Assembly: GCA_039798665.1 (NCBI GenBank)
Contig: JBDKFO010000002.1
Coordinates: 3,990-67,989, forward strand
Length of the DNA stretch: 64,000 nucleotides
Reading direction: 5' to 3'
Source: Bacteroidota bacterium
GTDB taxonomy: Bacteria; Bacteroidota; Bacteroidia; Flavobacteriales; Flavobacteriaceae
In this document: in pieces, positions 1,296-48,315 of the stretch
Layout of the letters: each line of letters starts with the position of its first letter
Numbering within the stretch: position 1 is the stretch's first letter
Translations under genes and position numbers: made by a program
Notes under the pieces: generated by a model
What the model was told of the DNA's origin: nothing
Seen by the model: only the letters and a program-made list of their open reading frames with translations
The model's database searches: none

Positions 1296-1786
1296 AGGAT
1301 GGGTAGAGTTATGTGTCGATTTAAATAATGCAGCGCGTGATAAAATGTCTCCCAATGGATTGATTTATAACGCTGAAAATTCAGCCATTCATTTCAAATA
1401 TCACGATTTATCTGATAGTAGACAAGTATAATTTTGAATGCTATTTTCCCAATGGGATAAAATTGATAGTAGATTACAACCAAACAGGCTTAAAATTTTG
1501 CTTTAGAGTATAGGCATTTTCATTTTTACAAATTTTTGCAGATATACACACCTCACGGCATCCGTGACTTGCCGTGTTTTTTTTCTTTTTTTTTAAATCA
1601 TGGCATATCTATTAAACAAATGAAGTGGCAGGTTCAGGCAATTACTTGCTGCTCATTTTATTTTTGCGTTGTATAGTTATTATATACGTACAGTGTATTT
1701 ATTTTCATTGCTTCTACTTTAATTTTAAAACTTATTAAAAGAGAAAAACAGCAATCTTGTTTCCTGTTCATTTTAAATCAAGCTAT

Positions 1787-3055: not shown

Positions 3056-3434
3056 CGTCCTAATTTATCTATTCCAAAAAGCGTTTCGCAATTCAATAAA
3101 CGTAAAAAGAAGTGCTAATTTTTAGAAGATCTGTTTTTTTTGTTTGTAATAAATATGATTTTCACAACCAATTAACCATACCGTTGGATAAAATTAACCA
3201 AGCAAAAACACAACATTAGTACAACAACGCAAAAACCCCGTTTTTTGCCAACTCCCAAAAACCCTTAGATTCTTCCCTATTTTTAACTATATCGTTTGCG
3301 TACGCTTCAATTTTAAGGAAAGAATTTGCCATCCATTTTTTGTATAGTTTATATATAGCCGGGATAAAATTTTAAAACTTATCCCATGGTCTATATTTGA
3401 GATTCTATACATGTAACCAATTAAAAACCAAACT

Positions 3435-6400
3435 ATGATGAAAAAAATTCTTTTATGTTTATTCCTAATGACTATTTCATTAGGGTATGCCCAACCTGGT
3501 GCATCGCCAACAGATCCTCCCGCAAGAAATGATTGGGATGTGAAATCTGTGTATAGCGATTCGTACACCAATCAAACTGGGGTGAGCTTTTTGAATTTTG
3601 GTGGAAGTACCATCAATGCCGATTACACACCACCAGGAGGAAATCCTGCTAAGTATTACACAGGGCACAGTTATTCTGGGATACAAGTAAACACGGCAGG
3701 AAGTCTAAACGTATTACAGATGACGCACTTACACTTTGATGTGTATTCGCCCAACTTTAGTTCGATGGCCATCAAATTAGAATCGTCTACAGGAGCTTTC
3801 AGAGAGCTTGCCGTAGCTGGTTCTGTTGTGCCTTCTGCCTCAACTAGAGACCAATGGATCAGTGTTGATTTGGCGTTGAGCACTTATGACACAGGCAACA
3901 TTTTAACAAGTTTAAAATATATAGTACCGGTAACATTTGGTCAAAATGCTACTTTATACATTGATAATGTTTATTTCTACAGACCGGCTACTACACAGCC
4001 CCCAACTTTAGGTGATTTTACAGTTCCTTCGCAATTAATAGGCGCGGCACCAATTACCCTAACTGCACCTACTTCTAATAGTGGTGGAGCATTTACTTTT
4101 ACCAGCAGCAATACAGCAGTAGCAACAATTAGCGGAACTACATTAACTATTGTAGGGCTTGGTTCATCAAACATTACAGCCACACAAGCAGCTGATGGCC
4201 CTTATGGCACTGGATCGGCAATTGCTGTTTTCAACGTAACACCCAATGCTGCACCTGTTCCACCAGCCCGTAATACCTGGGATGTAATTTCCTTGTATAG
4301 CGGTGCTTACACAAATCTTGCCAACACAAATTTTAATCCGAACTGGGGTCAATCTGGATTTGGAGCTTTTTCGGCTACTACTTTTGAAGGCGATGATGTG
4401 TTGCAATATCCTAACTTGAATTACCAAGGTACTGAAACAGCTGCCGATGTAAATGCAATTGCAATGACCAAAATGCACATCGATATTTTCTCGCCAACGT
4501 TAACGTCAATTCGTTTGTCGTTAATTAAAACGACTGGTGGCGCAACTGAAAAACCAATCACTTTGCCTTTAACTGCAGGCGTTTGGAACAGTTTTGATAT
4601 CGATTTAACCTCAGCCACATTTACCGGCTTGGATTTTACTAAAATCCGTCAACTTAAATACGACCAACCTTCTGCGGCAGGACAAACCCTAGTAGTAGAT
4701 AACATTTATTTCTGGAGAGATGCTACTACGCTTCCGCCAACTTTAGGTGCTTTTACCGTTGCTCCACAATTAACAGGTGCAGCGCCATTTGAATTAACTG
4801 CTCCAACTTCAAATAGTAATGGTGCATTTACGTTCAGCAGTAGCAATACTGCGGTGGCCACCATAAGCGGTACAACCGTAACGATTGTAGGAGTAGGTTC
4901 ATCAGTAATTACAGCAACACAAGCTGCCGATAGCGGCTATGGAGTAGGAATTGCTACTGCTACACTTGATGTTACGCCTACAGCAGCACCAACACCACCC
5001 GCACGAAACACCTGGGATGTAATCTCGTTATATAGCGGATCGTACACCAATGTGTCGGGAACCAACTTCAATCCAAACTGGGGACAGTCAGGATTTGGTG
5101 CTTTTTCAACGGCTTCTTATGAAGGCAATGAAGTATTGCGTTATCCAAACTTAAACTACCAAGGTACCGAAACGGCTGCCGATGTAAATGTTTCAGCCTT
5201 GAACAAATTGCACATCGATTTGTTTTCGCCTACCTTAACTTCTGTGCGTTTATCGTTGATTAAAGTTACTGGTGGCGCTGTTGAAAAACCAATCACTTTG
5301 CCTTTAACTGCAGGTGTTTGGAATAGTTTTGATATTGATTTAACCTCAGCCACGTTTACAGGCTTAGATTTTACCAAAATCCGTCAACTTAAATACGACC
5401 AGCCTTCTGCTGCCGGACAAACTTTGTCGGTGGACAACATTTACTTTTGGAGAGATGCTACCACGCAACCACCTACTTTAGGAGCCTTTACAGTGGCTGC
5501 CCAATTATTAGGCGCTGCTCCGTTTGAATTAACTGCACCGACTTCAAATTCTGCTGGAGCATTTACCTTTAGCAGTAGCAATACAGCAGTAGCAACCGTT
5601 AGTGGAACTACTGTAACTGTAGTTGGAGCTGGTTCTACAACCATTACTGCTACACAAGCCGCTGATGGTGGGTATGGAACAGGCACGGCAACGGCTACAC
5701 TTGATGTAACGCCTGCTGCGGCTCCAACCCCTCCGGCAAGAAATGCATGGGATGTGATTTCCTTATACAGTGGAGCGTATTCGCCTTCGTCTGCGCCAAA
5801 CTGGGGTGCAGCTGGAACTGATGTGTCTTTATCTGGTGATACTGCACGTTTTTTCAACGGATTTACTTTGGCTCGTTTGGCATTTGCTTCGACCAATGTA
5901 TCCGAGATGACGCACATGCATATCGATGTATACTCGTTGAATCAAAATCCATTGTGGTTTGAATTAAATGGAAACAGACGCGTAACCAACACACCTGTAA
6001 ATGGATGGGTAAGCGTTGATATTGCTTTATCTGAATTTGTGGGATTAAACCTGACAAACATTAGCTTTTTTGATTTAAACAATCCTACTGGCGCTTCTGC
6101 TCCAGTGAAACAAGTGTATTTAGATAACATCTATTTCTACAGAGACGCAACTTTGCAACCACCAACAATCGGTACATTAACAGTTCCAACTGGTGTAACC
6201 ATGGGTGATGCACCATTTGTGTTGACTAATCCAACAACAAATAGCTCAGGAACGTTCTCGTATACCAGCAGCAATACGGCGGTAGCTACAATTAGCGGAA
6301 ATACCGTGACTATTGTAGGTGGTGGTTCTACAACCATTACTGCTACTGTTGCTACTGATGGCGTTTATGGACCAAGAAGTACAACTGCTACGTTAAATGT

Positions 6401-8555
6401 TGCTTTTGCTTTACCAGGAGCCTCACCAATTCCACCTGCAAGAGAGGCAGCGAGAGTAATGTCGGTGTATACCGGGACTCCGGCTCAAGTATACGCAAAC
6501 AGTCCGGCTTATACCTTAGTACGTTCAAACTGGACCGCTGGAACGACGGCTAATTTTAATTTTGCTAATGGTGACAACACCTGTATTCAAGTAAATAACC
6601 TTGGATTTATTGGTTTGGTTGATCAAACCGAGCGTCGTTTAAATGTAACAGGCATGACCCATTTGCATTTAGATGTGTATTGCAATGCACCACTGTCTAA
6701 TTTATTTGTATTCCTTTTGGCTCCTGGAGACAGAAATTACAATACTGGACCACTTGTGGCGGGATGGAATTCATTAAGCATTCCGTTATCTTCCTACCCA
6801 GGTGCCTTGAATGACATTTACGGCTTTAAAATTGAGCAAAACGTAGCGCCAAACACTACGCAGATTTATCTGGACAACATTTATTTCAGTAATGATATTT
6901 ATACTTTTTACCAAGATACTGACGGCGATGGCTACGGAAACTTAGCGGCTTCAACCACTGCGGTTACTGCACCAACCGGGTATGTGTCCAACAGCACAGA
7001 CTGTGACGACAACGACAGTGCCGTATGGAGAACAGGCGATTTCTATGTTGATTTTGACAACGATGGCTACCATTTAGATTTGTCTCCATCAGCTTCAGTT
7101 ACAACCTTGTGCTATGGAGCTACTTTAGCACCGTACTATATTGCTTCAACGCTTGGCGCTGACTGCGACGACACCAACGCATTAGTTTGGAGATCGGGTA
7201 GTTTCTATGTGGATGCCGATAGCGATGGATATTCACCAAACGCCTCTTCTGAAACCTTGTGTTATGGAGCATCTACACCTAGTGGATATGCGGCCAGTAA
7301 CCTTGGATTGGACTGCGATGATGCAGCTGCCGCTGTAAATCCGGGTCATGTTGAGGTATTGTACAATGGAGTTGACGACAACTGTGACGGTCAATTAGAC
7401 GAAGGTTTCCAATTGACAACTGCCGTACAATCGGGTTCATGTGGTGTAACTTTGCCAACCTTAGGCGCATTGATTTATGCCAACATTAACTACTCAGCAA
7501 GCGGTTACCGTTTTAAAGTGGTAAACAACACCACTGGCGCCATTCAAACTATCGACAGAAGTCACCACTGGTTTGCCTTAAACATGCTTGCCGATTATGA
7601 GTATGCCACTACCTATACCATTTCAGTTGAATTGCAAAAAGCAGGTATTTGGTTGGGGTATTATGGATCTACTTGTTCTGTTTCATCACCGGCAATTTTA
7701 TCAGCTGGCGGAGCGTTACAAATTAATCCATCACAATGTGGAACTACATTAGCAAGCTTGGGTTCAGTTATTGCAACTACACCTATGAGCGGCGCAACGG
7801 GTTACCGATTTAGAGTAACCGATGTAACTGCAGGAGTAAGCGGATCAAACTTAATTCAAGTGAAAGACCGTTCGTACCACTGGTTTACTTTACCAATGTT
7901 AACCCGATATAACTATGGGTCAACCTATATGGTCGAAGTAGCCGTAAAAACAACTAGCGGTTACTCTGCCTACGGAACGCCTTGTTATGTAACTTCTCCA
8001 GCAGTACCAGGATTGGCTACTTGTGGAGCTGTAGTTCCAACAGCGGGTTCTTTGGTTTACACTACGTCAACCAATTCGGCTACGCAATACCGTTTCCAAG
8101 TTACCAATGTGTCTGATCAAACAACAGTAACGTTTGACACCAATAAGTTCTGGTTTAGCTTCCGAGTAAATGTTCCAGGTTATGTGCCAAATGCAGCCTA
8201 TTCAGTGCGCATTGCAGTGATGACTTCAGGAACATGGTCAGCCTTTGGTGATGCGTGCGAAATTACTTCGCCTGCTGCCTCAGCAAGAAACGAAGTGGCT
8301 GCATCACCTTCATTTGAAGCAGTTGCATTCCCGAATCCATTCTCAAGTGAATTCAAGTTGAATGTAACGACTTCTACTGCAGGTTCGGTAGAACTTCGCG
8401 TGTATGACATGATGGGTAAATTAATTGAGAACAAGTCAATTAACACCATCGATTATATAGCAGAAGACTTTGGAGCTGCCTATCCAGCGGGTGTTTACAA
8501 CGTAATTGTAACCCAAGGAGAAACAGTGAAAACCCTTCGCGTAATCAAACGATAA
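3435..8555 (+). CDS. Large modular T9SS type A-sorted surface protein: 5 carbohydrate-binding-like domains alternating with 4 Ig-like (BIG2-type) domains, DxDxDGY/DCDD Ca-binding (MopE-related) repeats
   Basis: Signal peptide; repeated PPARNxWDVISLYS...DNIYF modules and TLGxFTV...SSNTAVATISG..VTIVG.G modules; DTDGDGYG...DCDD repeats and NGVDDNCDG; C-terminal FPNPF...YDMMGK...GVYNV...KTLRVIKR T9SS CTD. Confidence 0.9.
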   Translation: MMKKILLCLFLMTISLGYAQPGASPTDPPARNDWDVKSVYSDSYTNQTGVSFLNFGGSTINADYTPPGGNPAKYYTGHSYSGIQVNTAGSLNVLQMTHLHFDVYSPNFSSMAIKLESSTGAFRELAVAGSVVPSASTRDQWISVDLALSTYDTGNILTSLKYIVPVTFGQNATLYIDNVYFYRPATTQPPTLGDFTVPSQLIGAAPITLTAPTSNSGGAFTFTSSNTAVATISGTTLTIVGLGSSNITATQAADGPYGTGSAIAVFNVTPNAAPVPPARNTWDVISLYSGAYTNLANTNFNPNWGQSGFGAFSATTFEGDDVLQYPNLNYQGTETAADVNAIAMTKMHIDIFSPTLTSIRLSLIKTTGGATEKPITLPLTAGVWNSFDIDLTSATFTGLDFTKIRQLKYDQPSAAGQTLVVDNIYFWRDATTLPPTLGAFTVAPQLTGAAPFELTAPTSNSNGAFTFSSSNTAVATISGTTVTIVGVGSSVITATQAADSGYGVGIATATLDVTPTAAPTPPARNTWDVISLYSGSYTNVSGTNFNPNWGQSGFGAFSTASYEGNEVLRYPNLNYQGTETAADVNVSALNKLHIDLFSPTLTSVRLSLIKVTGGAVEKPITLPLTAGVWNSFDIDLTSATFTGLDFTKIRQLKYDQPSAAGQTLSVDNIYFWRDATTQPPTLGAFTVAAQLLGAAPFELTAPTSNSAGAFTFSSSNTAVATVSGTTVTVVGAGSTTITATQAADGGYGTGTATATLDVTPAAAPTPPARNAWDVISLYSGAYSPSSAPNWGAAGTDVSLSGDTARFFNGFTLARLAFASTNVSEMTHMHIDVYSLNQNPLWFELNGNRRVTNTPVNGWVSVDIALSEFVGLNLTNISFFDLNNPTGASAPVKQVYLDNIYFYRDATLQPPTIGTLTVPTGVTMGDAPFVLTNPTTNSSGTFSYTSSNTAVATISGNTVTIVGGGSTTITATVATDGVYGPRSTTATLNVAFALPGASPIPPAREAARVMSVYTGTPAQVYANSPAYTLVRSNWTAGTTANFNFANGDNTCIQVNNLGFIGLVDQTERRLNVTGMTHLHLDVYCNAPLSNLFVFLLAPGDRNYNTGPLVAGWNSLSIPLSSYPGALNDIYGFKIEQNVAPNTTQIYLDNIYFSNDIYTFYQDTDGDGYGNLAASTTAVTAPTGYVSNSTDCDDNDSAVWRTGDFYVDFDNDGYHLDLSPSASVTTLCYGATLAPYYIASTLGADCDDTNALVWRSGSFYVDADSDGYSPNASSETLCYGASTPSGYAASNLGLDCDDAAAAVNPGHVEVLYNGVDDNCDGQLDEGFQLTTAVQSGSCGVTLPTLGALIYANINYSASGYRFKVVNNTTGAIQTIDRSHHWFALNMLADYEYATTYTISVELQKAGIWLGYYGSTCSVSSPAILSAGGALQINPSQCGTTLASLGSVIATTPMSGATGYRFRVTDVTAGVSGSNLIQVKDRSYHWFTLPMLTRYNYGSTYMVEVAVKTTSGYSAYGTPCYVTSPAVPGLATCGAVVPTAGSLVYTTSTNSATQYRFQVTNVSDQTTVTFDTNKFWFSFRVNVPGYVPNAAYSVRIAVMTSGTWSAFGDACEITSPAASARNEVAASPSFEAVAFPNPFSSEFKLNVTTSTAGSVELRVYDMMGKLIENKSINTIDYIAEDFGAAYPAGVYNVIVTQGETVKTLRVIKR
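4240..5710 (+). repeat. Intragenic tandem duplication, ~735-bp period (245 aa)
   Basis: Example anchor: gaaaaaccaatcactttgcctttaactgcagg at 4548 and 5283, with long near-identical stretches around it. Boundaries approximate. Confidence 0.85.
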
Positions 8556-38546: not shown

Positions 38547-38627
38547 AAGGCGTATAATTAGAGCTTTAAAAGTATAAAAAACCCGAATTAGTTGTGTTTT
38601 TATTTTAATCCATCTCAATCCTTTTTA

Positions 38628-38635
38628 TATTTTTG
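38628..38635 (+). promoter_or_regulatory. -7 element (TATTTTTG) only 4 nt before the glyQS ATG
   Basis: TATTTTTG-cagc-ATG. Confidence 0.6.
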
Positions 38636-38639
38636 CAGC

Positions 38640-40184
38640 ATGGCAAAACAAGAAGATTTATTTAAAAATGTCGTTTCGCACGCAAAAGAATACGGATTTA
38701 TTTTTCCGTCGAGCGAAATTTATGACGGACTAAGTGCAGTATATGATTACGCACAAAATGGAGTGGAGTTAAAGAAAAACATCCGCGAATACTGGTGGAA
38801 ATCAATGGTGCAAATGCACGAAAACATTGTGGGGCTTGATGCCGCCATTTTGATGCATCCCACCACTTGGAAAGCTTCGGGCCACGTAGACGCCTTTAAT
38901 GATCCGTTGATTGACAACAAAGATTCCAAAAAAAGATACCGCGCCGACGTCTTGATTGAAGACTACGCCGAAAAATTAAACCTCAAAGCCAAAAAAGAAA
39001 TCGAAAAAGCCCGCGAGCGTTTTGGTGAAAGCTTTGACGAAGAACAATACAAAACCACCAATCCCCGCGTGATGGAATACCTTTCTAAGGAAAGAGAGAT
39101 TCTTGAGCGCATGGGTCGTTCTTTAGGAAACGGTGATTTAGAAGATGTAAAAGCGCTCATTGAAGAACTCGAAATTGCCGATCCCGAAACCGGTTCGCGC
39201 AACTGGACCGAGGTGCGTCAGTTTAACTTGATGTTTGGCACCAAACTGGGAGCTTCTGCCGATAGCGCGATGGACTTATACTTGCGACCAGAAACAGCTC
39301 AGGGAATTTTTGTCAACTTTTTGAATGTACAAAAATCGGGTCGCATGAAGATTCCGTTTGGAATTGCACAAACTGGAAAGGCCTTTAGAAATGAAATCGT
39401 AGCACGTCAGTTTATTTTTAGAATGCGCGAATTTGAGCAAATGGAAATGCAATTTTTTGTGCGTCCAGGCGAAGAAATGAAGTGGTATGAATACTGGAAA
39501 ACCACTCGTTTAAATTGGCACTTGTCTTTGGGCTTGGGAAAAGAAAATTACCGTTTTCATGACCACGAAAAATTAGCGCATTACGCCAATGCCGCTGCCG
39601 ATATTGAATTCAATTTCCCTTTTGGGTTCAAAGAATTAGAAGGCATTCACTCTCGCACCGATTTTGACTTGAAAGCACATGAGGAGTTTTCAGGTAGAAA
39701 GATGCAGTATTTTGACGCCGAGCTCAATCAAAATTACACGCCTTATGTAGTCGAAACCTCTGTTGGATTAGACCGTATGTTCTTGGCCGTTTTTGCCACT
39801 GCCTTAAAAGAAGAAGTTTTAGAAGATGGTTCAACGCGCACCGTATTGCAGTTGCCTTCGGTGTTGGCTCCTACCAAAGCAGCCGTGTTGCCCTTGGTCA
39901 AAAAAGATGGCTTACCCGAATTGGCTCACGAAATCATCGACGAACTCAAATGGGATTTCCATGTAACCTATGACGAAAAAGATGCAGTAGGTCGTCGTTA
40001 CCGACGTCAAGATGCGTTAGGCACGCCATTTTGTATTACAGTTGATCATCAATCCTTAGAAGACAAAACCGTAACCATTCGTCACCGAGACAGCATGAAG
40101 CAAGACCGCGTCGCGATTACCGAATTGAAAGCCATCATAGAAAATGAGGTTTCCATGAAAAATTGGTTGCTAAAAACGAAATAA
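38640..40184 (+). CDS. glyQS: Glycine--tRNA ligase (homodimeric alpha2 type)
   Basis: SEIYDG, LRPETAQGIF, GKAFRNEI, FRMREFEQME, GRRYRRQD. Start ATG 38640. Confidence 0.96.
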   Translation: MAKQEDLFKNVVSHAKEYGFIFPSSEIYDGLSAVYDYAQNGVELKKNIREYWWKSMVQMHENIVGLDAAILMHPTTWKASGHVDAFNDPLIDNKDSKKRYRADVLIEDYAEKLNLKAKKEIEKARERFGESFDEEQYKTTNPRVMEYLSKEREILERMGRSLGNGDLEDVKALIEELEIADPETGSRNWTEVRQFNLMFGTKLGASADSAMDLYLRPETAQGIFVNFLNVQKSGRMKIPFGIAQTGKAFRNEIVARQFIFRMREFEQMEMQFFVRPGEEMKWYEYWKTTRLNWHLSLGLGKENYRFHDHEKLAHYANAAADIEFNFPFGFKELEGIHSRTDFDLKAHEEFSGRKMQYFDAELNQNYTPYVVETSVGLDRMFLAVFATALKEEVLEDGSTRTVLQLPSVLAPTKAAVLPLVKKDGLPELAHEIIDELKWDFHVTYDEKDAVGRRYRRQDALGTPFCITVDHQSLEDKTVTIRHRDSMKQDRVAITELKAIIENEVSMKNWLLKTK

Positions 40185-40203
40185 CGTTACCTATAAATTA
40201 TTC

Positions 40204-40235
40204 AATGGCTCGCTGAAAAGGGAGCCATTTTTTTT
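40204..40235 (+). terminator. glyQS terminator
   Basis: aatggctc...gagccatt followed by a T-run. Confidence 0.8.
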
Positions 40236-40377
40236 GCTATAAACACAGAAATTCCCCCTATAATTGTTAATAATTATTGAATTTCTTGTGCATAAGTCTA
40301 GCATTTTCCGTTGGCTAATGGTCTAATTTAGCCCTTGACTAGGTCTGTTTTGTTGATAAAGCCTAGCCTGCAAGCAA

Positions 40378-41271
40378 ATGAAGCATACTTTCATCATTGT
40401 GGACGACCAGCCCGAAAGTATTGAAAATGTGATGGCCATCGCCAGTCATTTTCAGCAGCTGGTTTGTTTGGCCTCGGCCACTACCTATGAAGATGGCTTG
40501 AATGCTATTTTAGAGCACAGCCCGCAGTTGGTGTTCTTGGAAATTTCCCCCGATGACAAAAAAAGCAATTTATCCTTGCAACTCATCAACGAATTGCACC
40601 GGTTTTTGCGCATTGTTCCCGAGATCATTGTCATTACCAAAAACAAAGACTTGGCTTTTGAAGCCATGAAATACGAGGTGTTGGATTATTTACTGAAACC
40701 ACTGGATGTAAATGAACTGCGCAAAACGATTTTAAAATACGAGAAGTTTGTGTTTGACAACCCGCGACTCTTCACCCAACCCAAAACATCCCGAACGGCG
40801 ATAGAGGTGGTAGAGCCCGAGATCATCTCGTCACCGCCTGCTGCAGAATCTCCGGATTCACAGAATTCGACCTCGGCCAAAATCATTGAAGCCATACCTG
40901 GGCTTTCATTGGCCCAAGAAAAACCCTTGATCATCTGTGTGAAATCCTATGGAGATTACCGTTTTATCGAAGCACGTGATATTTGTTATTTGCAGGCCGA
41001 CAACAATTCTACCGATATTCACTTGAATTCAGGCGAGATGATTACCGCCTTTAAAACGCTCAAACACTTTGAGAGCGTATTGACTAATCCTTTTGTGCGC
41101 ATTCACAACAGCTATATTGTAAATGTTGATTATGTGTCGCGCATCCACACCGGAAACTCGGTATGCTACATTAAAAATACCACTACCAAACTGCCATTTT
41201 CCAAGTCTTATAAGGAAAATATTGACGGAATTATTGCCGCAATTACCAATGGCAATTATTTAGAAATCTAA
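40378..41271 (+). CDS. LytTR-family response regulator with atypical receiver (phospho-Asp replaced by Glu)
   Basis: IIVDD...PQLVFLEI...DYLLKP receiver; low-complexity linker; LytTR domain (DICYLQADNNST...TLKHFE...FVRIHNSYIVN). Confidence 0.9.
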   Translation: MKHTFIIVDDQPESIENVMAIASHFQQLVCLASATTYEDGLNAILEHSPQLVFLEISPDDKKSNLSLQLINELHRFLRIVPEIIVITKNKDLAFEAMKYEVLDYLLKPLDVNELRKTILKYEKFVFDNPRLFTQPKTSRTAIEVVEPEIISSPPAAESPDSQNSTSAKIIEAIPGLSLAQEKPLIICVKSYGDYRFIEARDICYLQADNNSTDIHLNSGEMITAFKTLKHFESVLTNPFVRIHNSYIVNVDYVSRIHTGNSVCYIKNTTTKLPFSKSYKENIDGIIAAITNGNYLEI

Positions 41272-41309
41272 AAAATGCCATCCACTCGGATTTGGCTATC
41301 ATTCACTAT

Positions 41310-41339
41310 CAAACGGCTACTATCTACCACAAACGCCTA
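41310..41339 (+). promoter_or_regulatory. Direct-repeat pair upstream of the peptide gene, candidate LytTR site
   Basis: CAAACGGCTA (41310) and CAAACGCCTA (41330): 9/10 identity, 20-bp period. Confidence 0.4.
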
Positions 41340-41444
41340 AAAACAGTAGATTACAAGAGACATGCTATCTAGTTTTACACCGTGAATCACTGACGATTTA
41401 CATGAAACACGAAATAAAACACACATAAATAAACGTCTCAAATT

Positions 41445-41690
41445 ATGAAAAAAACAGTATTAACTTTAGGATTGTTTTCATTGATGATGATCTTAACCTC
41501 GTTCACTAGCCCAGAGATAGGGGGAACACAAAGTGCTCCAAGAAAATTCTCTGAACAAAATGATAATTTAGTATTAGAAATTGGAGGAACACAAAGTGCT
41601 CCAAGAAGAATGTTTGAAATTGGAGGAACACAAAGTGCTCCAAGAAAAGTATTTGAAATTGGAGGAACACAAAGCGCTCCAAGAAAATAA
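41445..41690 (+). CDS. Secreted repeat-peptide precursor (4 x EIGGTQSAP-R[K/R]), putative signalling peptide
   Basis: Sec-type signal MKKTVLTLGLFSLMMILTSF; repeats at aa 24-34, 45-55, 58-68 and 71-81; synonymous differences between copies; own terminator. Confidence 0.85.
   Translation: MKKTVLTLGLFSLMMILTSFTSPEIGGTQSAPRKFSEQNDNLVLEIGGTQSAPRRMFEIGGTQSAPRKVFEIGGTQSAPRK
41514..41687 (+). repeat. Four 33-bp coding repeats (last three at a 39-bp period)
   Basis: ga(g/a)at(a/t)gg(g/a)ggaacacaaag(t/c)gctccaagaa(a/g)a at 41514, 41577, 41616 and 41655. Confidence 0.95.
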
Positions 41691-41714
41691 ATAGTTTACC
41701 ACTAGATAATACAG

Positions 41715-41742
41715 AGCTTCCAATTTATTGGAAGCTTTTTTT
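41715..41742 (+). terminator. Terminator after the peptide gene
   Basis: agcttccaa-ttta-ttggaagct-tttttt. Confidence 0.8.
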
Positions 41743-41787
41743 ATTTTATATATTTTACATACTTTAGCCAAAATACATTTTTTGCTG

Positions 41788-43827
41788 TTGAAATATATTT
41801 ATTACATATTATCTGCCTATTTAATTTTTAGTTGTAATAAAACTAATAATTCTAATGCAATTGAAAATAATGCTTCGCTAGATAGTCTTTCAATTTATTT
41901 AGCTAATACTCAAAACGAAAATAAACCAAGTGCTAATCGAATAAAAAGCAGTGATAAAGCATTTAAGTTATTAAAAAGTCAAAAAAACACCTCGTATACA
42001 AGAGAACAACTTTATAATATTGCTAAATTTTATTACGAAAGTAAACTGGATTTTAAATTTAAAAACAGTGTTTTCATTTTAATTGAAAACTCTAAAAAGG
42101 AAAATGATTTCAAATTACTTTCTAAATCATATAATTTATTAGGGAATCATTATATTAATTTAAGTAAAAACGATAGTGCATATTATTATTTGCTGAAATC
42201 AGAGAAACTTTTCATTAAAGAAAAAGACAGTGTTTCATTAGGAAAAAACTATGTTGACAAAGCTTTCGTACAGTTATATGAAAATGATTATTCAGGTTGT
42301 GAACAATCTTCGATTACTGCACTAAATTTTCTTAAAAACAATTCAGACAAACAACTAGAATACGACGCTTATAATTTAATTGGAATTAGCGCCAATGAAT
42401 TAAAGAGTTATGATAATGCTATAGATTACCATAATAAAGCACTCAATATAGTTATCCAGAATAATATAGTTTCAGAATTTCATTATGAAGCTAGTTCAAA
42501 GAACAATATAGGAGTTGTTTATCAAAACATAAATAAACATAAAAAAGCAATTGAAATTTTTCAGAGTGCATTAAAAGAAAAAAATCTCTTAGTTGACAAT
42601 CCAAGCTTATATGCTATTATAACCGATAATTTAGCTTATTCTAAGTTTAAGACAAAAGATTTTAATTCATTACCAGCATTGTTTTATGAATCTTTAAGTA
42701 TTAGAGAAAAATATCAAATGTCTTCAGGTATAATTGCTAATAAAATTCATCTCTCTGAATTTTATTCATTTAAAAATGACACGATAATGTCTCAGAATTT
42801 TGCAATTGAGGCTTTAAAACTTGCAAAAAAAACAAAAATTTCTGGTGACATGTTAGCTTCTTTAAGGCAATTATCACTTGTTGAACACGTAAATTCAGCT
42901 AAATATTCTAAAGAATACATTAAAATCAGTGACAGTATTCAATTGGAGGAGCGTAAATCAAAAGACAAATTTGCACGTATTGCTTTTGAAACTGATGAAA
43001 TTATATTGGAAAAAGACAAATTAGCCGAACAAAATAGAAGCTTGTTGTACTTTTTTGTGGGCACTTTATTTGTAGGGTTATTGCTATTTGTGATTCGAAC
43101 ACAGCGTGCCAAAAACCGAGAATTGGTTTTAAAACAGCAGCAACAAAAAGCCAATGAAGACATCTATAATTTGATGATTTCTCAGCAAGCCACAATTGAA
43201 GAAAGTCGCGAAAAAGAAAAGAAAAGAATTGCACAAGAACTGCATGATGGGGTATTGGGCCGATTGTTTGGTGCCCGATTAAATTTGGATAGTTTAAACC
43301 GATTTACCGACGAGGAAGCCATTGCCAACCGATTTAATTACCTCAATGAACTTAAAAATATTGAGCAGGACATCCGGGAAATCTCACACGATTTGAATCG
43401 CGAAAAATACGTGCTGATTAATAATTTTGTGGCCATTGTGAATAATCTTATTGAAGAACAGAAAAACGCATTCAGTGCTTCGGTGTCTTGTGTAATTGAT
43501 GAAAAAATAAAATGGGATCAAATAGCCAATACGGTTAAAATTAACCTATACCGCATGTTGCAGGAATCGTTACAAAACTGTAATAAGTACGCCAATGCTT
43601 CAAAAATTGAGATCTTATTTGAATTACAGGAAGATTGCATTTATTTTAGCGTAGCGGATAATGGTATTGGATTTGATGTAAAATCAAAGAAAAAGGGGAT
43701 TGGTCTTCAAAATATGATCGCTCGAACCACCGAATGCAATGGGCAACTCGAAGTGATTTCTCAAAAAGGTTCGGGAACAAGCATAAACATTAAGGTACCC
43801 TTAACCGAACAAAAGGCAGAACACTAA
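41788..43827 (+). CDS. TPR-sensor histidine kinase 1 (HisKA_3 + HATPase)
   Basis: Likely TTG start 41788 (MKYIYYILSAYLIFSC, paralleling kinase 2; ORF track starts at 41728). TPR-like helices (AYNLIGISANELKSYDNAIDYHNKAL), one TM segment, H-box RIAQELHDG, LYRMLQESLQN, DNGIGF, GIGLQNM. Confidence 0.9.
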   Translation: MKYIYYILSAYLIFSCNKTNNSNAIENNASLDSLSIYLANTQNENKPSANRIKSSDKAFKLLKSQKNTSYTREQLYNIAKFYYESKLDFKFKNSVFILIENSKKENDFKLLSKSYNLLGNHYINLSKNDSAYYYLLKSEKLFIKEKDSVSLGKNYVDKAFVQLYENDYSGCEQSSITALNFLKNNSDKQLEYDAYNLIGISANELKSYDNAIDYHNKALNIVIQNNIVSEFHYEASSKNNIGVVYQNINKHKKAIEIFQSALKEKNLLVDNPSLYAIITDNLAYSKFKTKDFNSLPALFYESLSIREKYQMSSGIIANKIHLSEFYSFKNDTIMSQNFAIEALKLAKKTKISGDMLASLRQLSLVEHVNSAKYSKEYIKISDSIQLEERKSKDKFARIAFETDEIILEKDKLAEQNRSLLYFFVGTLFVGLLLFVIRTQRAKNRELVLKQQQQKANEDIYNLMISQQATIEESREKEKKRIAQELHDGVLGRLFGARLNLDSLNRFTDEEAIANRFNYLNELKNIEQDIREISHDLNREKYVLINNFVAIVNNLIEEQKNAFSASVSCVIDEKIKWDQIANTVKINLYRMLQESLQNCNKYANASKIEILFELQEDCIYFSVADNGIGFDVKSKKKGIGLQNMIARTTECNGQLEVISQKGSGTSINIKVPLTEQKAEH

Positions 43828-44489
43828 TGGAAAAGGCATTACAAATTTTATTTATAGACGATCATCCTACCATAATTGAAGGGTATAAAAGTATTTTGAA
43901 AGAAAAATACACCGACGATCAGCTCGAAGTTTTCGCAGCGTACAGCAGTGAGTATGGGTATGATAAACTTTTTCATTCCAACCGAGTATATGACATCGTG
44001 GTTTTGGATATTGGATTGCCGGCCTATTTACCCCAAAAAATTGAATCGGGTGAAGACCTAGCTTTTTTGATCCAAAAACATTTTCCTAAAACCAAAATTT
44101 TGATTTCCACCTCGCATTTGGAAGCTTTTATTTTATACAACATTGTAAAAAAAGTAAATCCGGATGGCCTGATGATTAAAAGTGATTTTAAATCGGAAGA
44201 GTTTATTTTGGCTGTGGATAAAGTACTGCAAGGGGAGGTTTATTACAGCCAAACCGTTCGAAATGCCATTAAAGAAGTGGCCGTACAAAACGATGCGCTA
44301 GATTCCATAGACCGCCGTATTGTGTCGCTGCTATCAAAAGGGATTAAAACCAAGAACATCCCCTCGCATTTGGGTATATCATTGAGTGCAGTCGATAAAC
44401 GGAAAGCCCAAATCAAGGACTTTTTCAATATCGTCAAAGGAACAGATGAAGACATTATTCGAGAGGCCACCAAGCGCGGATTAATCTAA
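43827..44489 (+). CDS. Response regulator, NarL/LuxR-like
   Basis: FIDDHP...VLDIGLP (Asp intact)...IKSD; C-terminal HTH; start overlaps the kinase 1 stop (TAATG). Confidence 0.9.
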   Translation: MEKALQILFIDDHPTIIEGYKSILKEKYTDDQLEVFAAYSSEYGYDKLFHSNRVYDIVVLDIGLPAYLPQKIESGEDLAFLIQKHFPKTKILISTSHLEAFILYNIVKKVNPDGLMIKSDFKSEEFILAVDKVLQGEVYYSQTVRNAIKEVAVQNDALDSIDRRIVSLLSKGIKTKNIPSHLGISLSAVDKRKAQIKDFFNIVKGTDEDIIREATKRGLI

Positions 44490-44568
44490 TTTTAACGTTT
44501 ACTGCAGATTTTCTGCATTTTAGGGCTGTATTAGCTTCTTACTTTAGCTCAACATAAAGCCATTACCC

Positions 44569-46578
44569 ATGAAGTATATTTGGATAGGAATAGCCCTGCT
44601 TTTATTTTTTGGATGTAAAAAACAAGAAAACGATATTAGTGAAAGGGAACAAATAAAAACCCTTTTATTAAGCGGTTCAAACAGAAAACTATCTTTTAAA
44701 TCAAGAAATTTTCTTAATGACAAGGTGTACCTTAAATTAAATAATCATAAAAATGATTCTATTAATAGAGAAAATTATTTTGAATTAGCATGGAATTATT
44801 TTACAATTAACGACATTGAAAAATTTAAAAAAATTACTGATGAAGTATTTTTATTAAGTAGGCAGAGTAAAAGTAAAAATCACTTAGCTCAATCAAATAA
44901 TTTGTTAGGTATTTACTATGAAACAAAAAGTATAAATGATAGTGCTTTTTATTATTATCTCAAAGCTGAAAAGATCTATAAAGCTGCAAATTTAGAAAGT
45001 AAATTATGTAGTATATATAGGAATAAAGCACTAGTTCAATACTATGTTAATGATTATTTGAATGCAGAAAAATCATTGGTTGATGCATTAATCATTGCAA
45101 AAAAATACAAACTAACTTACGATATTTTTAAGATTTATTCTTCTTTAGGTATAATATCTTACGATCAAGATGATTTTAATAAAGCAAATGAGTTTTTTGC
45201 TAAAGCTGAAATTATACTTAATGAAAATAGCTCACTATTTGACAACAATGAAATAGCGTTCTCTTGTTGCAATAAAGGGGTTAATTACTTTAGTCAAGGT
45301 AAAATTTTAAATTCTATAACAGAGTTTAATAAAGCATTAATTCTTCCTAACATAAATATAGAATATCCAGATATATACACAAGAGTTCTAGATAATTTAG
45401 CAAAATCATTTTTATATAATTCTTCTTATCAAAATTCTTTTTTGTTATTAAAAGAATCAGAAAAAATCAGAAAAAAATATAAAATTGTTTTTGGCAAAAA
45501 CTTCAACCGTCTTTATCTCTCCCACTATTATGCCGCAATACACAACTTGCCTAAGGCCAATGCCTATGCATTAGAAGCATTGGCCATCTCCAAAAATTTT
45601 AAGGCACCAAAAGACCAATTGCTGTGCTTGAAGCAGCTCATTAAAATCAATCCCCAAAAAGCCCTGCACTACAGCAGTCAGTACATTTCCTTGTCGGACA
45701 GCATGCAAAACATGGAGCGTCAAACGCGCAATAAATTTGCCAAAATTGCCTTTGAAACCGATGAAATTACCAAAGAAAAAGAAGAAGTCGAAGAGCAAAA
45801 CTCCATTATTTTATGGGTGTGCATTGCTATTTTTGTTATTGCGGTTTTGCTGTTTGTAATTGGGAGACAACTATTAAAGCAAAAAGAATTTCGCTTGCAG
45901 CAAGTACAGCAAAAAGCCAACGAAGAAATTTACAACCTGTTGTTGGCCCAACAAAACAAAATTGATTCAGCACGCAATAACGAAAAAGAACGCATATCCA
46001 AAGACCTGCATGACGGGGTGCTCAACCGCTTGGCCTCAACGCGCATGAACCTCGATTCTTTGCATAACCAGCCTAGCTCAGAGAATGTGCAAAAATCAAA
46101 AATCCTGATTGATGGCATCCAAGATGTCGAGAAAGAAATTCGCAACATCTCACATGATTTAAACAAAGAAGTATTTGCCAAATCGGTGAGCTTTGTCAAG
46201 GTAATTAGCACTTTTATGGAAGATCAATTTGAGGCAACGAAAACGCGAAATTTCTTAGAATTTGATGCCAAAATAAACTGGGATCTTATTCCAGGTTTGG
46301 TAAAAATTCATTTATACAGAATTGTACAAGAAGCAGTACACAACATCAATAAACACGCCCGAGCCCAATCGATCATTATAAATTTTTTGGCCATAGATGG
46401 CGGAATTAAATTGGAAATATTTGATGATGGGGTAGGATTTTTGTTAAACAAAAAGAAAAAAGGAATAGGTTTGCAAAACATTTACAGTCGCACCGCCTCC
46501 TGCAATGGAACGGTCTTAATAGAATCGCAAAAAGGAATAGGAACTACCCTTAAATTGTTTGTTCCGTATCAAGAATAA
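44569..46578 (+). CDS. TPR-sensor histidine kinase 2 (HisKA_3 + HATPase)
   Basis: MKYIWIGIALLLFFGC; TPR-like helices; TM segment; H-box RISKDLHDG, LYRIVQEAVHN, DDGVGF, GIGLQNI. Confidence 0.9.
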   Translation: MKYIWIGIALLLFFGCKKQENDISEREQIKTLLLSGSNRKLSFKSRNFLNDKVYLKLNNHKNDSINRENYFELAWNYFTINDIEKFKKITDEVFLLSRQSKSKNHLAQSNNLLGIYYETKSINDSAFYYYLKAEKIYKAANLESKLCSIYRNKALVQYYVNDYLNAEKSLVDALIIAKKYKLTYDIFKIYSSLGIISYDQDDFNKANEFFAKAEIILNENSSLFDNNEIAFSCCNKGVNYFSQGKILNSITEFNKALILPNINIEYPDIYTRVLDNLAKSFLYNSSYQNSFLLLKESEKIRKKYKIVFGKNFNRLYLSHYYAAIHNLPKANAYALEALAISKNFKAPKDQLLCLKQLIKINPQKALHYSSQYISLSDSMQNMERQTRNKFAKIAFETDEITKEKEEVEEQNSIILWVCIAIFVIAVLLFVIGRQLLKQKEFRLQQVQQKANEEIYNLLLAQQNKIDSARNNEKERISKDLHDGVLNRLASTRMNLDSLHNQPSSENVQKSKILIDGIQDVEKEIRNISHDLNKEVFAKSVSFVKVISTFMEDQFEATKTRNFLEFDAKINWDLIPGLVKIHLYRIVQEAVHNINKHARAQSIIINFLAIDGGIKLEIFDDGVGFLLNKKKKGIGLQNIYSRTASCNGTVLIESQKGIGTTLKLFVPYQE

Positions 46579-46591
46579 TAACTACAAAATT

Positions 46592-47263
46592 ATGGCACAA
46601 TTGGTTCGTGTATTAATGGTTGACGACCATCCTTTTATTATTGAAGCGTATAAAAATGCGATTAAAGGCTACAATACCAAGGGGCTATATGAATTTGAGA
46701 TTACCCAAGCCAAAGACTGTAAAACAGGCTATGAAGCCATTATCAACGAAGACAACCCACACTATGACATTGCCTTTTTTGATTTGAGTATGCCCACCTA
46801 CGAAGAAAAAGGGATTCAATCGGGTGAAGATTTGGCTTTGTTGGTCAAAGAACGCCTCCCCGCTTGTAAAATCATCTTGCTCACCATGCATTCGGAGATG
46901 CTCAAAATCAATACCATCATCAAAAACATCAACCCCAATGGGCTTGTGATCAAAAATGATTTAACCTTTGATGAATTGTTGTTGGCTTTTGATAAGATCT
47001 TAAAAGACGAAAATTACTACAGCCAAACGGTTGTGAAATTAGTAAGTCAAATTCCGTTTGATTCCAATGAAATAGATGTGTTTGACAAACAATTATTGTT
47101 TCATTTGTCAAAAGGAGTACCAAACGCCGACTTGGCACAATATGTTCCTCTTGCAGCTGCGGTCATAGAAAAACGCTTGACAAATTTAAAAGCGGTACTC
47201 GAAATTCCCCACGGCACCCACGCCGAATTGGTTCAAGAGGCCAAAAACAAAGGGATCATTTAA
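46592..47263 (+). CDS. Response regulator, NarL/LuxR-like
   Basis: MVDDHP...FFDLSMP (Asp intact)...IKND; degenerate C-terminal HTH; paralogue of 43827-44489. Start ATG 46592. Confidence 0.88.
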   Translation: MAQLVRVLMVDDHPFIIEAYKNAIKGYNTKGLYEFEITQAKDCKTGYEAIINEDNPHYDIAFFDLSMPTYEEKGIQSGEDLALLVKERLPACKIILLTMHSEMLKINTIIKNINPNGLVIKNDLTFDELLLAFDKILKDENYYSQTVVKLVSQIPFDSNEIDVFDKQLLFHLSKGVPNADLAQYVPLAAAVIEKRLTNLKAVLEIPHGTHAELVQEAKNKGII

Positions 47264-47265
47264 GT

Positions 47266-48315
47266 TTATTCTTCAGCCAAGGCATTCCAGCCTCGGGCTT
47301 TTAGCGGTATTTTAGTGTTGGCTCGGGTAATGAGGTGCATGCCTTCAGCGGCTTCAACCATATGTCCAATAATGGTAAAATTGGGATTGCCTTTTAGTTT
47401 GTCAAAATCGTCCATTTTTACCGTAAAGAGCAATTCGTAGTCTTCGCCACCATTGATGGCAACAGTTGTACTGTCCAACTGAAATTCTTCGCACACCGAG
47501 ATCAACTGCGGATCCAGCGGCAATTTATCTTCATACAAATTACAACCCACTGCCGATTGTTTGCACAGGTGTAAAATCTCGCTCGACAACCCATCTGAAA
47601 TGTCAATCATTGAGGTTGGATTTATTTCCAGGGCATGCAACAAGGTGCGCACGTCGGTTCTTGCTTCAGGCTTGAGTTGGCGTTCGATGAGGTAGGAATA
47701 AGCTTCTAGATCGGGTTGCGAATGGGGGTTTACTTGAAACACTTGTTTTTCGCGCTCCAAGACTTGCAAGCCCATATAGGCCGCACCCAAATCGCCACTC
47801 ACCACCAAGAGATCATTTACTTTGGCTCCGTTTCGGTACACCAATTCATCTGCCGAAGCTTCCCCAATCGCGGTGATGCTCAAGATTAATCCTTTTTGAG
47901 ACGAAGTGGTGTCGCCACCAATTACATCTACTTTATACGCTTTGGCAGCCAAGGCAATTCCGGCAAATAATTCTTCCAAGGCCTCCAACGGAAATCGGTT
48001 GGAAACGGCCACCGAAACCGTAATTTGGGTAGGCTTTGCATTCATGGCACAAATGTCAGAAACATTCACCACCACGGCTTTGTAGCCCAAGTGTTTGAGT
48101 GGCATATAGGCCAAATCAAAATGCACGCCTTCAATGAGTAAATCGGTAGAAATTACCGCTTTTTTATCGGCAAAATCCAACACCGCTGCATCGTCGCCTA
48201 TGCCTTTGAGGGTTGACGGTTGCGTAATTTCAAACTGATTTGTCAAGTGATCAATTAAGCCAAATTCGCCCAATTGAGAAAGGCTGGTGCGTGCCGGTGA
48301 TTTATCTTCTAGCAT
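47266..48315 (-). CDS. thiL: Thiamine-monophosphate kinase
   Basis: GEFGLI, GIGDDAA, STDLLIEGVHF, NVSDICAMNA, GGDT, IDISDGL, GGEDYELLFT. Confidence 0.95.
   Translation of the reverse strand: MLEDKSPARTSLSQLGEFGLIDHLTNQFEITQPSTLKGIGDDAAVLDFADKKAVISTDLLIEGVHFDLAYMPLKHLGYKAVVVNVSDICAMNAKPTQITVSVAVSNRFPLEALEELFAGIALAAKAYKVDVIGGDTTSSQKGLILSITAIGEASADELVYRNGAKVNDLLVVSGDLGAAYMGLQVLEREKQVFQVNPHSQPDLEAYSYLIERQLKPEARTDVRTLLHALEINPTSMIDISDGLSSEILHLCKQSAVGCNLYEDKLPLDPQLISVCEEFQLDSTTVAINGGEDYELLFTVKMDDFDKLKGNPNFTIIGHMVEAAEGMHLITRANTKIPLKARGWNALAEE

Follow-up and report, generated by a model that had tools for sequence, protein, structure and literature searches.

The question raised by this locus is whether a very small gene, lying between a regulator gene and a sensor kinase gene, encodes a peptide that is exported and then recognised by the kinases encoded beside it. 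The window analysed is a stretch of 64,000 nucleotides from a Bacteroidota bacterium of the family Flavobacteriaceae (GenBank assembly GCA_039798665.1, contig JBDKFO010000002.1, positions 3,990 to 67,989 of the forward strand), and the locus is a cassette of six co-oriented open reading frames (ORFs) on the + strand between glyS and thiL (Table 1). It consists of a LytTR regulator gene, a gene for an 81-aa repeat peptide, a first histidine kinase with tetratricopeptide repeats (TPRs), designated HK1, its neighbouring response regulator RR1, a second TPR kinase, HK2, and a second regulator, RR2. All six ORFs and their domains were recovered at the positions given in the original prediction, which had been made from the letters of the sequence. 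To our knowledge, cell-cell signalling by ribosomal peptides is textbook in Gram-positives and essentially undescribed in Bacteroidota, and TPR-containing HisKA_3 kinases are among the commonest unexplained sensors of Flavobacteriia. On comparative sequence evidence only, the locus is a strong candidate for peptide-receptor signalling of a known kind in a phylum where it is undescribed. It is judged somewhat probable that the exported peptide units are the ligand of the TPR domain of HK1, and probably of HK2, with signalling through the NarL-like regulators and with a pseudo-receiver LytTR protein setting peptide expression.

The window precursor carries an N-terminal Sec-type signal (MKK followed by a hydrophobic core) and four units, is without Cys, and reads MKKTVLTLGLFSLMMILTSFTS-P-(EIGGTQSAPRK)-FSEQNDNLVL-(EIGGTQSAPRR)-MF-(EIGGTQSAPRK)-VF-(EIGGTQSAPRK)-stop. 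No model for the peptide was found in Pfam or NCBIfam. A protein database search returned 34 homologues, in which the first ~27 residues (MKKxxLTxGLFSLMMxLTSFTSPEIGG) are almost invariant and are followed by 2-5 unit copies that are identical within a protein and differ between proteins (TQSAPRK, TQNAPRK, AQTAPRS, SNTAPKPR, QESRGSRR, NNTAPKP, NGNQASQR and GPGNQGAPRP). Further units in the genus are EIGGQSTPRNR, EIGGGNADRRS, IGGNGGNETRK, DLVGGASAGGNKKV, NIGGTREIKTDSY and DIIGQGSAGGNMKL. Across the genus the copy number is 2-6 and varies among close relatives (three units in genome G167 vs four in G168), short variable spacers separate the units, the unit ends are basic or KKxD, and the precursor ends exactly at a unit boundary. 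A peptide profile matched at least 130 of the 251 Flavobacterium species genomes, nearly always in single copy. The profile sees one signal-peptide variant only, which makes its absence scores soft: genome G018 was scored peptide-negative, yet has the cassette (contig C3, locus 6138-6347), in which a different signal peptide, MKTILAFLGLFMFASVTS, precedes two ENGDGSAQPRKKPDLA units, and because this variant escaped the profile the count of 130 is an underestimate. At the level of the family, a profile search matched 3 of 301 genomes, two of them from the query's own genus, and the peptide family is essentially absent from the 266 other genera of the family as far as that single signal-peptide variant is concerned.

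Proportions of synonymous (pS) and non-synonymous (pN) differences were calculated. Across 28 genes the signal-peptide codons gave a pS of 0.63 vs a pN of 0.10, and unit copies within one gene gave 0.43 and 0.032 (ratio 0.07), the within-gene rates carrying some ascertainment bias since the units were picked by similarity. High pS with low pN among the units implies that the copies are old as DNA and have been held identical as peptide, and units that are identical within a species and change in concert between species are expected if all of them must fit one receptor. By its breadth of occurrence and its substitution pattern, the peptide gene is no chance ORF but a conserved family under purifying selection at the protein level, and the prediction of an exported repeat peptide from a single small ORF is borne out by the 34 homologues, the 130 of 251 genomes and the pS/pN signal.

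The same architecture could belong to an antimicrobial peptide, a bacteriocin or the precursor of a ribosomally synthesised and post-translationally modified peptide (RiPP) that is merely regulated by two-component systems. Its hypervariable core stands behind a conserved leader-like N-terminus, the [ED]IGG motif recalls a double-glycine site, and the genome has one Peptidase_C39 match elsewhere (contig C8, 85943-86281, 62.9 bits), in an 804-aa ORF that is unlinked to the cassette and probably encodes a peptide-exporting ABC transporter. This origin is nevertheless exceedingly improbable. Neither a modifying enzyme nor an immunity gene nor a transporter was found in the more than 40 loci examined, the N-terminus is of Sec type and off the GG-leader consensus (Ile at -3, not -4), the units are hydrophilic, Gly/Pro-rich and Cys-free, and the peptide co-varies with a sensor domain and not with an immunity gene. 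From the residues around the motif, a double-glycine leader with C39 processing is unlikely, and the earlier statement that no RiPP-modifying enzyme or dedicated exporter lies next to the gene agrees with an ORF and Pfam survey in and beside the cassette, which found neither.

The tie between the peptide and the neighbouring TPR domains was examined through their co-variation, with four relatives whose glyS and thiL are 95-99 % identical to those of the window. The TQSAPRK type is represented by the window and locus L047, and the QESRGSRR type by loci L035 (genome G168), L036 (genome G230) and L051. The TPR domains of HK1 are 77 % identical within the first type and 80-90 % within the second, vs 47-50 % between types, and those of HK2 are 58-76 % identical within a peptide type and 38-53 % between. 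The rest of the locus (glyS, LytTR and the cytoplasmic domains) contradicts this grouping. By glyS and the LytTR receiver the nearest locus to the window is L035 (99 %), and by the cytoplasmic part of HK1 (94 and 91 %, respectively), RR1 (93 %) and the cytoplasmic part of HK2 (93-94 %) the nearest are L036 and L051. Breakpoints were mapped by 100-nt sliding nucleotide identity against the relatives. Identity is 85-97 % up to position 41500, the end of the signal peptide, falls to 36-59 % from there to ~42800 (peptide units through the end of the HK1 TPRs), returns to 80-93 % over the stalk, the kinase core and RR1, drops again at 44600-45500 in the HK2 TPR domain and is high thereafter, so that the breakpoints coincide with the domain borders between signal peptide and units and between TPRs and stalk. 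In a partial Mantel test across 25 loci, the correlation of peptide unit with HK1 TPR domain given LytTR was r = 0.61 (p = 2e-4), and the reverse partial was 0.18. A second, independent case is the pair L017 and L018, with identical units, TPR domains 92 % identical and LytTR proteins 74 % identical. The predicted co-variation of peptide and sensor thus appears in these alignments, as a mosaic hypervariable block.

Within a type, the TPR domain has a dN/dS (ratio of non-synonymous to synonymous rates) of ~0.1, which points to purifying selection. For pairs of different type with matching cytoplasmic domains (window vs L036 and L051), the TPR domain has a dN of 0.64 and the cytoplasmic part one of 0.04-0.05, and dS is saturated throughout; positive selection on the TPR domain was considered and is not demonstrable, given the saturated dS and the low within-type ratio. 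The alleles look like old lineages reshuffled by recombination rather than fast-evolving ones, as in agr groups. The G+C content is 0.23-0.29 over the TPR-coding stretches 41500-42900 and 44600-45500 and ~0.40 in the rest of the locus and its flanks; a TPR composition rich in N, K, Y and I and a foreign origin of the alleles are both possible sources of the low values.

A polypeptide of tandem units could also be a protease bait, its released units being read by the TPR kinases as a proxy for proteolysis or for nutrient peptides, in which case it would report periplasmic or extracellular protease activity of the cell itself, of its neighbours or of a host. The variable spacers and the basic or KKxD unit ends resemble cleavage sites, no dedicated processing enzyme is linked to the gene, and flavobacteria are known for abundant secreted proteases. 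A bait leaves the joint diversification of unit and sensor among close relatives unexplained, however, and is considered quite improbable.

Both kinases have a lipobox signal, ~400 periplasmic residues, one transmembrane (TM) helix and a HisKA_3/HATPase_c core whose H, N and G boxes are intact. Their Pfam scores are 30.6 and 26.9 bits for HisKA_3 (cut-off 24) and 42 and 29.1 bits for HATPase_c (cut-off 26.4). The start of HK1 had been placed at 41728, from which the ORF would run into the terminator of the peptide gene; the start is most probably the TTG at 41788 (MKYIYYILSAYLIFSC), because this gives an HK2-like lipobox (MKYIWIGIALLLFFGC) and clears the terminator. The periplasmic part of HK1 was modelled with AlphaFold2 from a 9-sequence alignment (pLDDT 82.8, pTM 0.74), which returned 17 TPR-type helices (~8 TPRs) at pLDDT >85 and a conserved, low-confidence stalk helix linking them to the membrane. 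The top Foldseek matches in the PDB were LGN/Pins TPR domains (E 2e-9, TM-score 0.62-0.68), whose structures hold extended NuMA, Inscuteable and Frmpd peptides in the groove of the superhelix; these were followed by designed consensus TPR proteins and O-GlcNAc transferase, and lower down by Rap receptors, both Phr-bound and free (E 2e-6, TM-score 0.48-0.55). As modelled, the periplasmic fold of HK1 is of the peptide-binding kind, a resemblance of fold and not family membership, and the proposal that its TPRs form a peptide-binding solenoid is upheld to that extent.

The regulators RR1 and RR2 (ORFs of 220-234 aa) have receivers above the Pfam cut-off with the canonical Asp kept. They had been called LuxR-type, a plausible label with weak backing: both align end to end with the NCBIfam NarL, UhpA and MctR models, though far below the cut-offs, and Pfam GerE had no match in the C-terminal 80 aa of either protein. 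The best NCBIfam name, MctS/MctR, was rejected as that of an unrelated rhizobial system whose kinase matches in the cytoplasmic core only. In loci with a single pair (L005 and L054-L060) an HK1-like kinase is followed by an RR2-like regulator, and for this reason the HK1-like kinase was probably paired with RR2 ancestrally.

A groove of this kind would equally serve a cis-acting periplasmic modulator of the adjacent kinase, either free or anchored by an uncleaved N-terminal helix, perhaps titrated or degraded under envelope stress and not diffusible between cells, much like MgrB-PhoQ, CpxP-CpxA or ExoR-ExoS. For something that serves only as a signal peptide, the hydrophobic N-terminus is unusually well conserved; neither an exporter nor a route across the outer membrane is linked to the gene, an LGN-type superhelix takes long extended polypeptides and not only short peptides, and the co-variation fits any direct binding partner equally. 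Such a modulator would not be expected to have a copy number of 2-6 that differs among close relatives, unlike a fixed stoichiometric scaffold, nor units kept identical in a protein that ends exactly at a unit boundary, and the reshuffling of specificity types (pherotypes) in near-identical backgrounds is a signature of social discrimination, unexpected for a private modulator. A cis-acting role is the foremost rival but is regarded as unlikely, and the reading in which the released units are the ligand of the kinases is preferred.

The regulation of the peptide gene was approached through the LytTR protein and the DNA in front of the gene. The phospho-acceptor site reads FLE(I/V), with Glu55 in place of Asp, in 37 of 37 aligned orthologues, and the DD pair, Thr and Lys of the receiver are retained. 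Glu at this site is a classical phosphomimetic, and with it the LytTR protein cannot serve the neighbouring kinases as a phosphorylation target; the protein may be constitutively DNA-binding. Its DNA-binding domain is 87-100 % conserved vs 50-99 % for the receiver. Peptide and LytTR genes occur together in 126 genomes, the peptide gene alone in 4 (three of them weak matches), the LytTR gene alone in 6 and neither in 115, so that both are present in 126 of the 136 genomes with either one.

Upstream of the peptide ATG, three direct repeats with an exact 21-bp period were found in 27 of 28 loci, those of the window being CCATCCACTCGGATTTG, TCATTCACTATCAAACG and CTATCTACCACAAACGC, and the third repeat starts at a fixed distance of 48-50 bp ahead of the -7 box. 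In most loci this box is 75-83 nt upstream of the ATG, and it is kept across the genus; in the window it is TAGTTTTAC, which we take, from established knowledge, to belong to the TAnnTTTG consensus. A position weight matrix (PWM) scan of the 2.31-Mb genome scored adjacent repeat pairs at the operator at 37.3 and 34.5, with 21.6 as the next best score, and found the triple repeat nowhere else. LytTR regulators such as AgrA, ComE, BlpR and PlnC bind direct repeats at ~21-bp spacing. From the conserved DNA-binding domain, the co-occurrence and the fact that the cassette LytTR gene is the only one adjoining the operator, we infer that the cassette LytTR protein binds the repeats and drives expression of the peptide. 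Downstream of the peptide stop codon, 26 of 28 loci have a stem-loop with a T-run, and the stems are unrelated in sequence. By these signals the peptide gene is a predicted self-contained monocistronic unit with its own promoter and terminator, and it is probably strongly expressed.

The regulatory logic therefore departs from that of agr, com and blp, which the original prediction had invoked: the LytTR phospho-site is Glu in all 37 orthologues, and the kinases are HisKA_3 and not HPK10, each with its own NarL-like regulator. Of the feedback of a regulator on the peptide gene, control by LytTR is supported by the three conserved and unique repeats, and the loop from sensing to expression is not supported, because the LytTR protein is unphosphorylatable and the kinases have their own regulators.

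Two further observations concern this region. The last ~16 nt before the ATG (AAAGTCTCAAATT, window 41424-41444) are nearly invariant across the genus, and they contain TCAAATT, reverse-complementary to the AATTTGA of operator repeat 1 (41288-41294), which may be a chance 7-mer match or a translational control element. An Rfam search of 40000-47500 returned no known RNA element; sub-threshold 'PyrG/Phe leader' matches were set aside as the terminator hairpin of the peptide gene, and a lysine-riboswitch match as chance.

The gene order was then surveyed in Flavobacterium, the prediction having been that a small signal-peptide ORF recurs between LytTR and TPR-HisKA_3 genes. Of 29 loci, 26 have LytTR upstream of the peptide gene and 27 have an HK1-like kinase directly downstream of it, the two without such a kinase being contig ends. 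The cassette occupies the same chromosomal site, between glyS and thiL, in small genomes and in large ones of 5-6 Mb, and the order is also kept in the 5-6-Mb clade and in loci with extra kinases. The glyS-thiL gap is ~45-115 bp in G016 and G020, an empty site that makes the word 'inserted' in the original prediction a fair one. By this distribution, the cassette is apparently ancestral to a large part of the genus Flavobacterium.

Some loci have additional kinases, and in all of these the gene just 3' of the peptide gene is again an HK1-like kinase. An extra pair of the RR1/HK2 type stands before or after the peptide gene, depending on the locus, and locus L062 (genome G075, contig C1, 3800000-3819500) has five TPR-HisKA_3 kinases and only two regulators, four of the kinases being in tandem upstream of the peptide gene, after a LytTR/RR pair, and the fifth, HK1-like one downstream of it. 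The extra kinases of G075 may serve as further receptors, perhaps of peptide types that are foreign to the cell.

A second, paralogous cassette built on the same logic is present in the same genome, outside the window (contig C11, 585-4615; Table 1), with two GTTACT motifs 21 bp apart upstream of its peptide gene.

Inherited synteny combined with one AT-rich recombination hotspot, with no functional link between the genes, would account for part of this picture, since all loci are at the same glyS-thiL site, so that adjacency is largely inherited, and the variable blocks are the AT-rich ones of low G+C content. It is less easily squared with breakpoints that fall on domain borders, with the co-variation of a second, non-adjacent TPR block in HK2, with a unique operator tying LytTR to the peptide gene, or with the paralogous C11 cassette, which repeats the three-part architecture with an unrelated peptide. 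The absence of any functional link is accordingly rated as most improbable.

Some relatives differ in detail around the cassette. Several of them (L002-L005, ~5100-6650) have two more genes between glyS and LytTR, one with a P63C domain and an opposite-strand ORF of ~160 aa; the window has neither, and the insertion looks unrelated to the cassette. The metagenome contigs L049, L050 and L052 and the contig L037 (C78 of G167, a metagenome-assembled genome, MAG) break at the peptide gene or at the start of the TPRs, which fits an assembly effect of co-existing divergent alleles in one sample. In L003, from a long-read MAG, the kinases are fragmented, and L002 has truncated calls for LytTR and the kinases.

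If the units are the ligand, the system would work as follows. The precursor would be exported to the periplasm by its Sec-type signal and cut between the units into peptides of ~11-14 residues, the mature form EIGGTQSAP in the original prediction having been a guess. Each peptide would begin with the conserved [ED]IGG, continue with a variable segment for specificity and close with basic residues or KKxD. Such peptides would bind the concave groove of the HK1 TPR superhelix, and probably that of HK2, and would thereby alter the kinase/phosphatase output to the NarL-like RR2 and RR1. The LytTR protein, with its phosphomimetic Glu, would drive peptide expression by a route other than phosphorylation by the adjacent kinases. 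It is further possible, and put forward tentatively, that the peptides are released and then sensed by the TPR kinases in the periplasm of neighbouring cells, with pherotypes for self and non-self, which would make this the first peptide-pheromone system of the Bacteroidota. Action between cells, in quorum sensing or kin discrimination, is the least secure step and is suggested by the allelic, recombining peptide/TPR pherotypes. The extra tandem TPR kinases, up to five per genome, could then be eavesdropping receptors for foreign pherotypes.

Several findings weigh against this scheme. At ~1.1 kDa a unit is larger than porins classically admit, and the cassette has neither an exporter nor an importer linked to it, so that release from and entry into a Gram-negative cell are unexplained. 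Strict tandem identity is not universal, as the precursor of the large-genome clade consists of two diverged units ending in KK[VIL]D with a long spacer between them, the protein again ending at a unit end. The locus contains no output genes, and the LytTR protein lacks a canonical phosphate acceptor, so that autoinduction is conjectural. The close-relative comparison covers two peptide types, and the peptide units adjoin the HK1 TPRs in the DNA, so that a single recombination tract could carry both without their being coupled. The last concern is countered by the LytTR gene, which is equally adjacent and does not co-vary, and by the HK2 TPR domain, which does co-vary across a conserved spacer, though more weakly.

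The predicted system was compared with known ones. As in Agr of Staphylococcus and ComCDE/BlpCHR of Streptococcus, a small peptide gene lies beside genes for a membrane kinase and a LytTR regulator, phased direct repeats (here predicted LytTR boxes) precede the peptide gene, and a hypervariable peptide and sensor are combined with conserved cytoplasmic parts into specificity groups. Unlike their polytopic HPK10 sensors with 5-7 TM helices, the sensor here is a periplasmic TPR superhelix with one TM helix and HisKA_3, the LytTR protein is without the phospho-Asp (Glu55), and the kinases have NarL-like regulators of their own. Export is of Sec type, with no AgrB or ComAB-type C39 transporter in the cassette or any related locus, the precursor is multi-copy, and the host is Gram-negative, with an outer membrane to cross.

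With the RRNPP(A) systems (Rap-Phr, NprR-NprX and PlcR-PapR) the locus shares a TPR solenoid as the presumed peptide-binding module, a likeness at the level of the modelled fold only, a small gene for a Sec-exported pro-peptide adjoining the receptor gene, and the co-diversification of peptide and receptor. Some Phr and NprX precursors have intragenic tandem duplications of the autoinducer (PMC5199041). Unlike the cytoplasmic, Opp-fed RRNPP receptors, the TPRs here are periplasmic and fused to a TM kinase, and membership is absent at the sequence level. As judged from gene content and domain architecture, the system is a putative merger of the membrane kinase of agr and com with the TPR receptor and Sec-exported pro-peptide of RRNPP, and it fails defining features of both. 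The precursor also recalls fungal alpha-factor precursors, with a signal sequence, tandem identical units, short basic spacers and a variable copy number; unlike here, these have Kex2/Ste13 processing and a G-protein-coupled receptor and belong to another domain of life, and the likeness is an analogy only.

Within the Bacteroidota, FimS of the Porphyromonas gingivalis FimS/FimR system is a sensor with periplasmic TPR motifs, as is HK2. Residues 104-447 of HK2 have a weak alignment to the FimS model NF053520 over its sensor part (25.8 bits against a cut-off of 600), far too low a score for HK2 to be accepted as a member of that family, and HK1 had no match to the model. The small secreted protein PorA of P. 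gingivalis (PorA-PorXY) is reported as a ligand of PorXY (PMC12152298). PorA is a cargo of the type IX secretion system with a C-terminal domain, unlike the tandem-unit peptide of this locus. In MgrB-PhoQ, CpxP-CpxA and ExoR-ExoS the periplasmic domain of a kinase is the target of a small exported protein, as is proposed here. ExoR is a Sel1/TPR-like repeat protein. MgrB, CpxP and ExoR are cis-acting and show neither hypervariability nor tandem units nor allelic types. In full-text literature, no description was found of the peptide family, of ligands of the TPR-HisKA_3 kinases or of the pseudo-receiver LytTR protein; a LytTR mutation from an F. johnsoniae coevolution study was considered and is not assignable to this locus.

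Table 1 Positions of the features of the cassette and its flanks in the window, and of the paralogous cassette on contig C11
Feature	Position	Strand	Remarks
glyS	38592-40184	+	Upstream flank of cassette
LytTR regulator (pseudo-receiver)	40378-41271	+	Pfam Response_reg E 6.8e-9, LytTR E 2.6e-16
Three 21-bp-phased direct repeats, CATYYACYnnnAWWYG	41278-41340	+	Predicted LytTR operator
Bacteroidetes-type -7 promoter element TAGTTTTAC	41370-41378	+	Peptide gene
Peptide precursor, 81 aa	41445-41690	+	Signal peptide 41445-41510
Units EIGGTQSAPR[KR]	41514-41546, 41577-41609, 41616-41648, 41655-41687	+	
Intrinsic terminator	41713-41748	+	Peptide gene; 11-bp stem and T-run
HK1	41788-43827 (ORF from 41728)	+	Pfam TPR_12/TPR_1, HisKA_3 and HATPase_c
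HK1 lipobox Cys codon	41833-41835		
HK1 TPR superhelix and stalk	41836-43038		
HK1 TM helix	~43039-43098		
RR1	43827-44489	+	Pfam Response_reg; NarL-like C-terminal domain
HK2	44569-46578	+	Pfam TPR_12/TPR_1, HisKA_3 and HATPase_c; lipobox LLFFGC
HK2 periplasmic TPR domain	~44617-45801		Followed by TM helix
RR2	46559-47263	+	Probable start ATG 46592; Pfam Response_reg
thiL	47266-48315	-	Convergent downstream flank
C11 NarL-like regulator	585-1235	-	Divergent
C11 LytTR regulator	1377-2087		Thr at phospho-acceptor site (pseudo-receiver)
C11 56-aa lipobox peptide MKPNFLVKLFLLTIVCVSLNSC / TLDELISNSTAQTDTSLTAKDGEPLTPVPPPQSR	2372-2539		Own terminator
C11 TPR-HisKA_3 kinase	~2600-4615		

For one subfamily of TPR-HisKA_3 kinases, the locus offers a testable candidate ligand together with a predicted operator. 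Natural specificity variants are at hand in the TQSAPRK and QESRGSRR types, which occur in otherwise 95-99 % identical backgrounds, and the cassette is present in genomes of 5-6 Mb, the size class of the genetically tractable species. If the reading is true, the passage of ~1-kDa peptides through the outer membrane would call for an explanation, and the fusion of a periplasmic TPR domain with a kinase would be a new type of receptor, in which the two known Gram-positive solutions are merged.

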